Source: a virus
Virus genome (UHGV): UHGV-0132373
Length of the DNA: 29,781 nucleotides
Reading direction: 5' to 3' (one strand)
Position numbers and translations under genes: made by a program. How positions within the stretch are numbered: position 1 is the stretch's first letter; each line of letters opens with the position of its first letter. Of this stretch, positions 153 to 5,094 are shown one piece after another. Below the pieces are notes generated by a model that worked only from the letters and a program-made list of their open reading frames with translations, had not been told where the DNA came from and did no database searches.

Positions 153-314
153 ATGACAAAACGTCGTAAGAAATACCAGGAAAAAGAAGAGATTCGACAC
201 CCTGATTCACCTGAGGGATTAGTGGTAGCCGCAGCAAATAACAGGGCGTTCGCAGAGCGCCTTGTTGGTGTTTACAGACTAGCCAAAGCAGGAGTGAAAC
301 ATGGGCGTCGTTAA
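153..314 (+). CDS. small basic hypothetical protein (53 aa)
   Basis: ATG at 153 preceded by AGGAG (ACAGGAGTAATT-ATG); TAA at 312-314 overlaps the start of the O-like gene. Below the 60-aa cutoff of the ORF track. No recognisable domain. Confidence 0.35.
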   Translation: MTKRRKKYQEKEEIRHPDSPEGLVVAAANNRAFAERLVGVYRLAKAGVKHGRR

Positions 315-1122
315 GTTAGCTGATTACAGGCCTCAACTTGAGGTCGTGGAGCATCGCGTGGCAGATACCGAAGATGGTTTCATGCGCGTTGCTAACGAGA
401 TTACCGACAGTCTGCTGATGGCTGATTTAACCGTCCGGCAGTTGAAGGTGATGCTCGCTATCATGCGCAAGACATACGGATTCAATAAGCCGATGGATCG
501 ACTCACAAACACGCAGATAGCAGCCATGACAGGTATTCATCACACTCATGTTTGCGCTGCCAAGCGCCAGCTTATCGAGCGTAAATTCCTCATTGCTGAT
601 GGCGTGAAAATCGGAGTGAACAAGGTGGTTTCTCAGTGGATTAGCCAGGACAGCTTAACATTAGCTAAAACAGCTAATAAAACATTAGCCAAGTCGGCTA
701 ATGGGTATAAGCCAAGTCAGCTAAACACAAAAGACAATATACAAAAGACAATAAATACAAATACCCCCTTACCCCCTAACGGGGGTGGCGATGGGCAGGT
801 TAAACCTGAACGTCGCAAGGCAGAACGAATCGACTACGAATCCTTCCTGAACGCCTACAACACCGAAGTCGGTGACAGACTGCCACACGCTGTTGCGGTC
901 AACGAGAAACGCAAACGCCGCCTGAAGAAAATCATCCCGCAACTGAAAACGCCAAACGTGGACGGTTTCAGAGCGTATGTCAGGGCGTTTGTGCATCAGG
1001 CCAAGCCGTTTTACTTCGGAGACAACGACACGGGCTGGACAGCTGATTTTGATTACCTGCTGAGGGAAGATTCGTTAACGGGAGTACGGGAAGGGAAGTT
1101 TGCAGACAGGGGGATTGCATGA
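301..1122 (+). CDS. replication initiation protein, lambda O / P22 gp18-like
   Basis: 273-aa ORF whose N-terminal region (…[37 protein letters not shown]…) matches the lambdoid O-type initiator DNA-binding domain. Internal iteron/AT-rich origin (641-790). Stop overlaps the helicase start (ATGA at 1119-1122). Confidence 0.85.
641..790. repeat. putative origin of replication: about four imperfect 20-24 bp direct repeats (iterons), an A/T-rich tract, then a G/C-rich inverted element
   Basis: TTAGCCAGGACAGCTTAACA / TTAGCTAAAACAGCTAATAAAACA / TTAGCCAAGTCGGCTAATGGGTATA / AGCCAAGTCAGCTAAACACAAAAG (641-733), then A/T-rich ACAATATACAAAAGACAATAAATACAAATA (734-765), then CCCCCTTACCCCCTAACGGGGGTGG (766-790). 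Lambda-type ori architecture inside the initiator gene. Confidence 0.7.
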
Positions 1123-2495
1123 GACAGGATATCGAAGCGAGCGTTATCGGTGGCCTGCTGATTGGTGGATTAACACCAACCGCCAGCGACGTTCTGGCAA
1201 CGCTGGAGCCGGAAGCGTTTTCAATTCCGCTCTACCGGAAAGCCTTCGAGGTTATCCGCAAGCAGGCGAGAAACAGAAACCTAATCGATGCGCTGATGGT
1301 TGCCGAGGCGTGCGGAGAGGAGCATTTCACGTCAATCCTGATGACCAGCAAAAACTGCCCGAGTGCCGCAAACCTGAAGGGATATGCTGGAATGGTCGCG
1401 GATAACTATCACCGCCGTCTGGTGCTGGAAATCATGGATGAAATGCGTGAACCAATTCAGAGCGGAACCATCGACGCATCGAGTCAGGCGATGGATGAAC
1501 TTGTAAAGCGTCTTTCAGCCATCAGAAAGCCACGTGACGAGGTTAAACCTGTACGGTTAGGGGAAATCATCACCGACTACACTGACACGCTTGACAGGCG
1601 TCTGAGGAACGGAGAAGAGTCCGATACCCTGAAGACCGGAATCGAAGAACTTGATGCCATCACCGGAGGGATGAACGCGGAAGACCTTGTGATAATCGCT
1701 GCTCGTCCTGGTATGGGGAAAACCGAACTGGCGCTGAAGATTGCCGAAGGCGTTGCAAGCCGCGTTATTCCTGGTTCTGACGTCCGGCGCGGAGTGTTGA
1801 TTTTCTCGATGGAAATGAGCGCATTGCAGATTGCAGAGCGAAGCATTGCCAACGCCGGGAGGATGCCGGTTAGCGTGCTGCGAAATCCTGCTTCGATGGA
1901 TGACGAAGGCTGGGCGCGCGTTGCTAACGGCATGAGTCAGCTTGCAGATTTGGATGTATGGGTAGTCGATGCCTCGCGGTTATCGGTCGAAGAAATACGC
2001 TCAATCGCAGAACGGCACAAACAGGAAAATCCAAACCTCTCACTCATCATGGCGGATTATCTTGGCCTGATTGAGAAGCCGAAAGCAGATCGCAACGACC
2101 TCGCAATTGCTCACATCTCCGGAAGCCTGAAGGCGATGGCGAAAGACCTGAAAACGCCAGTAATCTCCCTGAGTCAGCTTTCGCGCGATGTTGAGAAGCG
2201 ACCAAATAAACGCCCGACAAACGCAGATTTGCGTGATTCAGGAAGCATTGAACAGGACGCAGACTCAATCATCATGCTCTATCGGGAGGCGGTATATGAC
2301 GAGAACAGTAGCGCCGCGCCATTTGCTGAAATCATCGTGACGAAAAACCGTTTTGGCTCGCTTGGTACGGTTTACCAGCGGTTCTGCAACGGACACTTTG
2401 TTGCATGTGACCAGGATGAAGCCAGACAGATTTGCACAACATCAAATGCACCTGCTGCGCGTGGCAGACGATATGCACAAGGGGCTGACGTATGA
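1119..2495 (+). CDS. DnaB-family replicative DNA helicase (P22 gene 12-like)
   Basis: 458 aa with Walker A motif [16 protein letters not shown] and DnaB-like C-terminal domain features (…[41 protein letters not shown]…). Translationally coupled to the O-like gene. Confidence 0.9.
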
Positions 2496-3614: not shown

Positions 3615-4035
3615 ACTAAGAAGCCCCATCCATCAGCAGAACGCCATTCAAGCTATCCAGCAAATTCTTCCAGACCCAACCAAACCAATCGTAGTGACCA
3701 TCCAGGAACGCAACCGCAGCTTAGACCAAAACCGAAAGCTTTGGGCTTGCCTTGGTGACGTCTCTCGTCAGGTTGAATGGCATGGTCGCTGGCTGGATGC
3801 AGAAAGTTGGAAGTGTGTGTTTACCGCAGCATTAAAGCAGCAGGACGTTGTTCCTAACCTTGCCGGGAATGGCTTTGTGGTAATAGGCCAGTCAACCAGC
3901 AGGATGCGTGTAAGCGAATTTGCGGAGCTATTAGAGCTTATACAGGCATTCGGTACAGAGCGTGGCGTTAAGTGGTCAGACGAAGCGCGACTGGCTCTCG
4001 AATGGAAAGCGCGATGGGGAGATCGGGCTGCATGA
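3592..4035 (+). CDS. ninB: NinB (Orf-family recombination mediator)
   Basis: 147-aa protein near-identical over its length to lambda NinB as I recall it (…[143 protein letters not shown]). Confidence 0.93.
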   Translation: MVRKLTFELRSPIHQQNAIQAIQQILPDPTKPIVVTIQERNRSLDQNRKLWACLGDVSRQVEWHGRWLDAESWKCVFTAALKQQDVVPNLAGNGFVVIGQSTSRMRVSEFAELLELIQAFGTERGVKWSDEARLALEWKARWGDRAA

Positions 4036-4559
4036 CTATCAAATCAAATACGCCAGCACACGACAAGGACTGCTGGCAAACGCCGCTTTGGCTTTTTGAT
4101 GCACTGGATATTGAGTTTGGATTCTGGCTGGATTCGGCAGCGAGCGACAAAAATGCTCTGTGTGCTCACTGGCTAACTGAGGCCGACGACGCGCTCAATT
4201 CTGAGTGGGTAAGCCACGGTGCAATCTGGAATAACCCACCGTACAGCAATATCAGGCCGTGGGTGGAAAAAGCCGCTGAGCAGTGCATACAACAGCGACA
4301 GACGGTAGTTATGCTTGTGCCAGAGGATATGTCAGTCGGATGGTTCAGCAAGGCTCTGGAGAGTGTCGACGAAGTTCGCATTATCACTGATGGACGGATT
4401 AATTTTATCGAACCATCGACAGGGTTGGAGAAGAAGGGAAACAGCAAAGGCTCCATGCTGCTGATTTGGCGACCGTTCATCAGTCCTCGACGGATGTTTA
4501 CTACCGTATCCAAAGCGGCATTGATGGCGATCGGGCAGGGCGTCAGGAGGGCGGCATGA
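4032..4559 (+). CDS. DNA N6-adenine methyltransferase (phage Dam-like)
   Basis: 175 aa from ATG 4032 (ATGA overlap with ninB stop). Contains the catalytic NPPY motif ([10 protein letters not shown]) of N6-adenine/N4-cytosine methyltransferases. Occupies the ninC position. Confidence 0.85.
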
Positions 4560-4732: not shown

Positions 4733-5094
4733 CAATGGATTATTCACAGTTAAGTGATTTTGAAATTAACGTGGCGGTATTCGAAGCCATTCATAACGGA
4801 TCACCGGATTACAAAGAAGGTGAGAATGGCGATATGGTGTTTGTCTCATTTGAGGGAGACATTGTAAACGGATACGCAGTTGAAGTAGAAGTTGAGCGCG
4901 GATCCTTTAACCCATGCGCAAACCCAGCAGACGCATGGCCGATTATTGAAAAATACAGGATTAGCATTATCAATCTCGATGAAGACGAGTGGGGTGCACG
5001 CGGTGTGGCCTACTGTAAATCTAAGCGAGCTATACATGAAAATCCCCTCCGCGCCGCCATGATTGTCTTTCTCATGATGCAGAGAATCCAATAA
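4729..5094 (+). CDS. conserved hypothetical nin-region protein (121 aa)
   Basis: ATG 4729 with GAGGAA Shine-Dalgarno, ATGA overlap with the previous stop; acidic protein. The ORF-track start at 4693 is a GTG further upstream. Confidence 0.6.

Follow-up and report, generated by a model that had tools for sequence, protein, structure and literature searches.

An HK97/ST104-type candidate replication origin on the λ plan inside the initiator gene of a P22/CUS-3-like temperate phage

Introduction

Lambdoid phages keep the layout of their replication origin and vary their iterons and the specificity of their initiator, which has been textbook knowledge since the comparisons of λ, φ80, 82 and P22 of about 1979-1984. 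In phage λ, the origin is composed of four iterons and an AT-rich tract in the middle of gene O, and the mechanism of initiation was established for this phage (PMC7466680). Gene 18 of phage P22 carries four different repeats of about 20 bp (PMC7466680; PMC8022706). An 'HK97' replication specificity, with ST104 included at 98%, was listed by Villafane et al. (2008), who counted proteins of at least 92% identity as having the same specificity (PMC2629481). More recently, the replication module of Stx phages composed of a 273-aa Phage_rep_O protein and a 458-aa DnaB was referred to as 'Eru2' and called non-lambdoid in a 2021 paper that left the origin unmentioned (PMC8044961).

A full-text literature search returned indirect statements but no explicit published description of the HK97 iterons, and the searchable literature yielded no experiment on the TTAGC/GCTAA iteron type. 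The examined records of HK97 and its near-identical relatives contain no rep_origin annotation for this type.

The window, i.e. the whole stretch of DNA that was analyzed (29,781 bp), represents about 30 kb of a roughly 40-kb P22/CUS-3-like temperate phage, so that a second origin could lie elsewhere. Judging from their sequence, positions 640-786 are very probably the vegetative replication origin of this phage, built on the oriλ plan and located in the linker of the initiator gene.

Organization of the locus

The features of the locus are the following (iterons, A-rich tract and dyad carry no strand).

301..1122, + strand: O-like replication initiator gene, 273 aa, with the putative origin inside (ORF and Pfam Phage_rep_O)
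301..639, + strand: coding region of the predicted N-terminal winged helix-turn-helix domain (AlphaFold2, Foldseek, helix/iteron tracking)
640..657: iteron 1, ATTAGCCAGGACAGCTTA, encodes ISQDSL
660..677: iteron 2, ATTAGCTAAAACAGCTAA, within TLAKTAN
684..701: iteron 3, ATTAGCCAAGTCGGCTAA, within TLAKSAN, in the reading frame of iteron 2
707..724: iteron 4, ATAAGCCAAGTCAGCTAA, within YKPSQLN, adjoins the A-rich tract
725..763: A-rich tract, presumed unwinding element, 39 bp, GC about 0.30
764..786: G/C-rich dyad, C5-TTA-C5-TAAC-G5 (764-785), encodes PLPPNGG
787..1122, + strand: C-terminal domain of the initiator, presumed to recruit the helicase (96-97% DNA identity to the C-domains of hybrid initiators)
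1119..2495, + strand: DnaB-type replicative helicase gene, 458 aa, partner of the initiator (Pfam)

The Phage_rep_O family (PF04492) is matched by residues 19-113 of the initiator (E 5.8e-33, 113.7 bits for a cut-off of 28.7). No Pfam family was matched by the C-terminal domain (787-1122), and a PDB sequence search with the whole initiator gave no match at E values up to 1. The helicase gene lies directly downstream, its start overlapping the initiator stop codon, and its product contains DnaB_C (E 1.2e-77) and the DnaB N-terminal domain (E 4.5e-13). Neither the origin nor the oop-like block gave a match at Rfam gathering thresholds, sar RNA at 25.9 kb being the only one in the window, and no tRNA genes were found.

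The earlier note had placed four imperfect iterons within the O-like ORF and these were recovered at 640-724, where it had located them. The four 18-bp repeats share 78-100% identity with the reference copy, their starts lie 20, 24 and 23 bp apart, and each of them is a dyad, TTAGC-N7-GCTAA. They begin at codon 114 (nt 340 of the gene), right behind the Phage_rep_O match. An alignment of 48 iterons gave the consensus ATTAGCCAAnnnAGCTAA. T2, G5, C6, G14 and A18 never vary, the outer half-sites as a whole vary little or not at all, and the three central positions vary almost freely. Four matches to the degenerate consensus TWAGCYANNNCRGCTWA occur in the window, all of them in the cluster, for 0.10 expected, and four matches were reached in none of 100 shuffles. 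Scanned in full for tandem and direct repeats, the window showed no second short-range array of the iteron kind. A search for DnaA boxes found a single TTATNCACA in the window, at 4740, which is at chance level and far from the origin.

The same DNA was proposed to make the protein linker repetitive. This holds for iterons 2 and 3, the only ones that lie 24 nt (8 codons) apart and that consequently yield the peptide repeat TLAKTAN/TLAKSAN, but not for iterons 1 and 4, which contribute ISQDSL and YKPSQLN. The iterons start at codon positions 1, 3, 3 and 2 and are thus read in three frames, a pattern which argues that the DNA repeat and not the peptide is maintained.

Directly to the right of iteron 4, the A-rich tract opens with ACACAAAAGA. 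Its existence was also anticipated by the earlier note as an A/T-rich tract, and 31 of its 39 bp (725-763) are A+T, with 26 A on the + strand. It contains a 14-bp tandem repeat of two units, ACAAAAGACAATA(T/A), at 727-754. By nearest-neighbour stability, no 40-bp duplex of the first 24.9 kb is weaker than 723-763, which is the seventh least stable window-wide; the weaker stretches all lie at the immI and tailspike end, which is low in GC.

Conservation at the DNA level

Selection on the DNA was examined in a codon-aware alignment of 13 TTAGC-type genes, in which the mean pairwise nucleotide identity was calculated per codon position (1/2/3).

N-domain: 0.82/0.89/0.53
Iteron block: 0.75/0.85/0.77
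A-rich tract: 0.78/0.81/0.76
C-domain: 0.59/0.63/0.41

In the iterons and the A-rich tract, third positions lack their usual relaxation, which argues that both are under selection on the DNA itself. An IMG/VR scan gave 80 loci, of which the 46 with an intact initiator reading frame were used to match helices with iterons. All 19 loci that share the helix segment of the window have TTAGCC..AGCTAA repeats spaced by 20/24/23. The earlier note had made its reading depend on the repeats being conserved as a unit in related phages, and the unit is indeed kept where the N-domain is only 53-62% identical.

The G/C-rich dyad

The inverted G/C-rich element announced from the first reading of the sequence is present at 764-786. 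It can form a hairpin with a 6-bp stem, ACCCCC/GGGGGT (771-776 and 781-786), and a 4-nt loop, TAAC. Its folding was evaluated in a fixed 55-nt window placed after the A-rich tract of 24 non-redundant related origins, with mononucleotide shuffles as reference. A dyad capable of forming a hairpin was found at the same position in 24/24 origins, every z-score being negative (mean -2.0).

It is a real though lesser possibility that this element simply codes for a Pro-Pro...Gly-Gly hinge (PLPPNGGG) and has no function as a DNA structure. CCC and GGG codons necessarily yield runs of C and G, identity in the dyad segment is low among TTAGC-type genes (0.59/0.65/0.56 at codon positions 1/2/3) and the individual z-scores are modest, with only 14 of the 24 hairpins below -1.5. 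Against this, the dyad stands at the same place in all of these origins, its stems being unrelated and coding for different peptides: C5/G5 here, GTCATC/GATGAC in locus L076, GTCCGAA/TTCGGAC in mEp043, CTTACC/GGTAAG in loci L066 and L079, and the λ palindrome. The lengths of the C, C and G runs also shift together, being 4/4/4 in Yersinia phage 06.16, 5/5/5 here and 6/6/6 in phiES15. Covariation and conserved position favour a role of the dyad at the DNA level, as far as sequences can indicate, and part of its conservation may be exerted at the protein level, C5/G5 also encoding the Pro/Gly linker.

Initiator specificity

The N-terminal domain was modelled with AlphaFold2 (residues 1-119). With an alignment of 30 sequences the mean pLDDT was 76 and the means of 10-residue blocks reached 78-93 for residues 31-110, confidence being low in the first 30 residues and beyond residue 110; the single-sequence model of the same segment was unusable (pLDDT 42) and was set aside. 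The predicted elements are a helix at 45-58, a strand at 66-67, helices at 70-77 and 81-93, and wing strands at 97-100 and 103-106. The top Foldseek matches in the PDB were all winged-helix regulators (MarR, CRP/FNR, IclR and GntR) and were weak (E 4e-3 to 3e-2). In this model the domain is predicted to be a winged helix-turn-helix whose variable segment, TGIHHTHVC (residues 77-85), is located at the turn and the start of the predicted recognition helix (residues 81-93). The corresponding segments are TGMAPTKCS in P22 and TKLPVKRCN in λ.

The segment at residues 77-85 sorts perfectly with the type of iteron, both among eight aligned O proteins and in the 46/46 intact IMG/VR loci, which distribute as follows.

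TGIHHTHVC: TTAGCC..AGCTAA, 19 loci
TGMA(P/A)TKCS: P22-type iterons, 16 loci
T(R/K/N)LPRQKVN: TGTCAC..GTGAC, 8 loci
(V/I)(G/A)KHHTHCS: ATTAGCGGAAnCTGCTAA, with the same outer half-site and other inner bases, 3 loci

Linkage as well as function would produce such perfect sorting, since each class forms a clade and the iterons directly adjoin the part of the gene that codes for the N-domain. The match between helix and iterons is thus confounded by descent and adjacency and is not independent proof of contact.

The iterons had been said to be of different sequence, and they do differ from those of λ, 434 and 21 (ATCCCTCAAAACGAGGGA) and from that of P22 (TTTACCnnATCGGTAAA). The distinct initiator specificity deduced in the earlier note is likewise supported by sequence comparison, the type of iteron tracking the predicted recognition helix. 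The same comparison supports an HK97/ST104 specificity class, defined by the iteron half-sites and the helix start GIHHTHVC and separate from the λ and P22 classes. The window belongs to it, since identity with HK97 reaches 100% in the iteron block and 99% in the DNA of the N-domain. It falls outside the P22 gene-18 class (TTTACC..GGTAAA iterons), with an iteron block of 54% identity and a different helix segment, and outside the λ class, with 53% identity in the iteron block, 45% in the C-domain (background level) and a DnaB helicase instead of P.

It is tentatively proposed, with slightly more doubt than conviction, that O-type origins may be a fixed scaffold whose specificity is reset by only a few residues where the winged-helix recognition helix starts (78-85), matched to 5-bp outer half-sites. 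The constant parts of the scaffold would be a 20/24/23 array of 18-bp dyad sites, an A-rich tract in which CAAAAGA recurs, and a dyad. The pairings observed are GIHHTHVC with TTAGCC..GGCTAA, (G/A)KHHTHCS with TTAGCGG..CTGCTAA, GMAPTKCS with TTACC..GGTAA and RLPRQKVN with TGTCAC..GTGAC. If this proposal were true, there would be a recognition code that can be read and engineered to obtain phage or plasmid origins orthogonal to one another, and the 'Eru2' module of Stx phages would be a plain λ-plan origin.

Hybrid initiators

Natural hybrid genes are found in ST415_1NRH, in the IMG/VR loci L052-L061, in CUS-3 and in Stx2_EH1965. In all of them the joint is situated downstream of the repeats, either within the A-rich tract or at the dyad, and another N-domain and its own repeats are paired with a C-domain of the window type. 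In ST415_1NRH and L052-L061, the P22 N-domain and P22 iterons are joined in the A-rich tract to the window type of C-domain (96-100%). Overall, the window matches CUS-3 best (96%), with homology that starts at window nt 748, within the A-rich tract. CUS-3 and Stx2_EH1965 have a distant Phage_rep_O N-domain (E 6.3e-15) and about eight 12-bp CCGCACATGA repeats, followed by the same C-domain (97%). The A-rich tract is a recombination joint used repeatedly, at which initiator specificity, i.e. N-domain and iterons, is exchanged against the presumed helicase-recruiting domain.

The partner gene located downstream goes with the type of C-domain. In HK97, P22, ST415_1NRH and Yersinia phage 06.16, which have the window type, the next gene encodes a DnaB-type helicase, and behind the λ type comes a P gene. 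A third type is common to phiES15 and Bas106, in which the next gene is annotated as P and as a DnaC-like loader, respectively.

Occurrence and significance

Judged by sequence identity, the origin is of an already known and very common type, that of HK97 and ST104 gene 18. The origin segment is present in 398 of 5,426 complete E. coli genomes (about 7%; coverage of at least 80%), near-identical origins occur in hundreds of E. coli and Salmonella prophages and the exact initiator protein was found on at least 1,000 contigs. The module of the window matches 'Eru2' in protein lengths and domain content and, judged by these, may be the same module; it carries here a full λ-plan origin. The finding thus locates the probable origin of a replication module that is very common in prophages and is found in Stx2c phages and ST104-type P22-like Salmonella phages. 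As most database records label this spot only 'replication protein', the finding allows it to be annotated as rep_origin. The table of recognition-helix and iteron pairs could guide specificity-swap work or the design of compatible λ-type replicons.

Proposed function

Several observations carry the reading of 640-786 as an origin. The four dyad iterons share their spacing with annotated gpO sites, the P22 counterpart (nt 353-497 of gene 18 in record BK000583) is annotated as rep_origin 'similar to phage lambda', and the complete kit of an easily melted A-rich tract, a dyad and a helicase gene is adjacent. Indirect support for binding of the initiator to the iterons and for a start of replication at this site comes from the constraint on the DNA and from the agreement between helix type and iteron type. 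Origin activity, O binding and unwinding are extrapolated from λ, and from P22 through an annotation made 'by similarity'.

It is very improbable that the iterons bind the initiator but serve mainly regulation and not the start of replication. The roles that could be considered are autoregulation or a roadblock of pR transcription into the helicase gene, handcuffing control of copy number, and a decoy or target in exclusion or defence. Plasmid iterons do both jobs, regulation and initiation. In addition, λ iterons carried on a plasmid inhibit rep-λ phages (PMC3349717), and the defence protein OLD binds λ iterons according to a 2026 preprint. However, the full origin kit is conserved beside the iterons, the same layout is a demonstrated start site in λ (PMC7466680), and such regulatory roles would add to the origin function, not replace it.

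Hardest to credit is the view that the repeats are a by-product of a duplicated low-complexity protein linker with no DNA role, the origin being elsewhere: the region does encode an interdomain linker, with one peptide repeat and low model confidence past residue 110, but the four repeats spread over three reading frames, their third codon positions are conserved like the first (0.77 vs 0.75, for 0.53 in the flanking N-domain), every repeat is a dyad whose outer half-sites are fixed and whose centre varies freely, the 20/24/23 spacing is kept across iteron families unrelated in sequence, and the window holds no second repeat array.

If 640-786 is the vegetative origin, initiation could proceed as follows by homology with λ O and oriλ. 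Dimers of the 273-aa O-like protein would bind the four dyad iterons (TTAGC/GCTAA half-sites) through their N-terminal winged-helix domain. The resulting bent and wrapped nucleoprotein complex would strain and open the adjoining A-rich tract (725-763). The C-terminal domain of the initiator would then bring the phage's own DnaB-type helicase (1119-2495) and not a complex of λ P with host DnaB, after which host primase and polymerase would act.

Comparison with known origins

The arrangement recognized in the earlier note, that of the λ origin within gene O, matches in iteron position, in the 20/24/23 spacing, in the A-rich tract and in the dyad. The window displays all anatomical elements of the oriλ plan: an origin between the N-terminal DNA-binding and the C-terminal domains of a Phage_rep_O initiator, four dyad iterons of about 18 bp at 20/24/23, a strand-asymmetric A-rich tract of about 40 bp, an inverted repeat to its right and a helicase gene downstream. 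Phage 434, which has a λ-type replication region, carries four annotated gpO sites with the same 20/24/23 spacing, which start at nt 349 of the gene vs 340 here.

A de novo repeat finder was run on 13 O-type genes. In 11 of them (the window, HK97, P22, λ/434, 21, a six-iteron Stx1 phage, mEp043, ST415_1NRH, Yersinia phage 06.16, Turner and 1W), at least four 18-bp dyad repeats were found at the same place with final spacings of 20/24/23. This spacing spans at least five iteron types, and the exceptions among the examined dyad-iteron O genes are Cronobacter phiES15, with six repeats spaced by 20, 24, 36 and 24, and Bas106, with four repeats spaced by 20/24/24. The last repeat is directly followed by ACACAAAAGA or a close variant in all 13 genes except Bas106. 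Representative iterons are listed below.

Window and HK97: ATTAGCCAAGTCGGCTAA
P22: TTTACCnnATCGGTAAA
λ: ATCCCTCAAAACGAGGGA
mEp043: TGTCACCAAAACGGTGAC
Turner and 1W: TTTACCTGAATCAGGTAA

Like the window, oriλ (and the origins of 434 and 21) combines a Phage_rep_O N-domain, iterons that begin about 340-350 nt into the gene with the 20/24/23 spacing, an A-rich tract (82% identity between λ and the window) and a palindrome. In contrast, the C-terminal domain of λ O is unrelated, its partner is λ P, which loads host DnaB and is not a phage helicase, and the λ palindrome differs in sequence from the C5/G5 dyad. P22 is closer in several respects. Its four dyad repeats lie at the same place in gene 18 with the same spacing, identity reaches 100% in the A-rich tract and 88% in the C5/C5/G5 dyad, the C-domains are homologues, and gp12, a DnaB-type helicase, is the partner. 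It differs from the window by its iteron block (54% identity), its N-domain (about 50-53%) and its helix (TGMAPTKCS vs TGIHHTHVC).

Iteron-type plasmid origins (RepA/RepE/π) possess direct repeats for a winged-helix initiator beside an A+T-rich unwinding element. They resemble the window in the fold class of the initiator, as predicted by modelling. Unlike them, the window origin lies inside the initiator coding sequence with no DnaA box nearby, and the initiator belongs to Pfam Phage_rep_O and not to the plasmid Rep families.

HK97 and its relatives are the closest counterparts. The O gene DNA is 98.7-99.3% identical to those of HK97 (gp54; 98.7%), HK446 and mEp213, and 98.3% identical to ST104 gene 18. 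Over the origin segment (630-795), identity with HK97, HK446, mEp213, Nil2 and the Stx phages 1717 and 2851 is 99.4%. In HK97, the iteron block and the A-rich tract are 100% identical to those of the window, a single base of the dyad differs (T786 here, C in HK97), and the same DnaB-type helicase gene, annotated as replicative DNA helicase, follows downstream.

Mosaic joints within the origin

Mosaic joints are located within the origin itself, at nucleotide 748 of the window and in the related loci L004, L052-L061, L005 (Stx2_EH1965) and L094 (CUS-3). Position 748, from which CUS-3 is homologous to the window, falls within the A-rich tract, and it is at this tract that the N-domain and iterons of P22 are joined in several phages to a C-domain of the window type. 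This conserved tract apparently serves as a joint for recombination, at which initiator specificity is swapped against the helicase-recruiting domain.

Two phage initiators have their C-domain in common with the window initiator but differ from it in their repeats:

L005 943-1890, 315-aa initiator of Stx2_EH1965
L094 1930-2877, 315-aa initiator of CUS-3

Their N-domain is a distant Phage_rep_O match (E 6.3e-15). In the gene, the place of the 18-bp iterons is taken by a 12-bp repeat, CCGCACATGA, which occurs about eight times and is translated as the peptide AHEAAQTTAHDAAH...

Genes around the replication module and phage affiliation

The following features were identified elsewhere in the window:

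153-314, small ORF (53 aa) between the end of the cII-like gene and O
3972-4559, Dam-type DNA N6-adenine methyltransferase gene in the nin region (Pfam Dam, E 9.4e-65)
25399-26870, P22-type immI region
25399-26016, - strand, Arc/Mnt-like ORF
25900-25967, - strand, sar antisense RNA (95.6 bits)
25902-26870, antirepressor Ant gene
27081-29072, tailspike gene (P22 head-binding domain and pectate-lyase-like receptor-binding part)

The 53-aa ORF overlaps the start of O, corresponds to HK97 gp53 and P22 orf48, and belongs to no Pfam family. An oop-like antisense RNA is probably transcribed leftward from 128-160, a segment without a match in Rfam. The origin segment 601-800 contains no GATC site. The P22-type immI region identifies the window as part of a P22/CUS-3-like podophage or prophage. 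GC content is just 36-39% across 27-29 kb, whereas elsewhere it is about 50%, a difference suggesting that the receptor-binding module of the tailspike was recently acquired.

Comparison with the Eru2 module

A module of Stx phages named Eru2, composed of a 273-aa Phage_rep_O protein and a 458-aa DnaB helicase, was described in 2021 and labelled non-lambdoid, with no mention of an origin (PMC8044961). The window module (301-2495) equals Eru2 in lengths and domains, and it carries an origin organized fully on the lambda plan.
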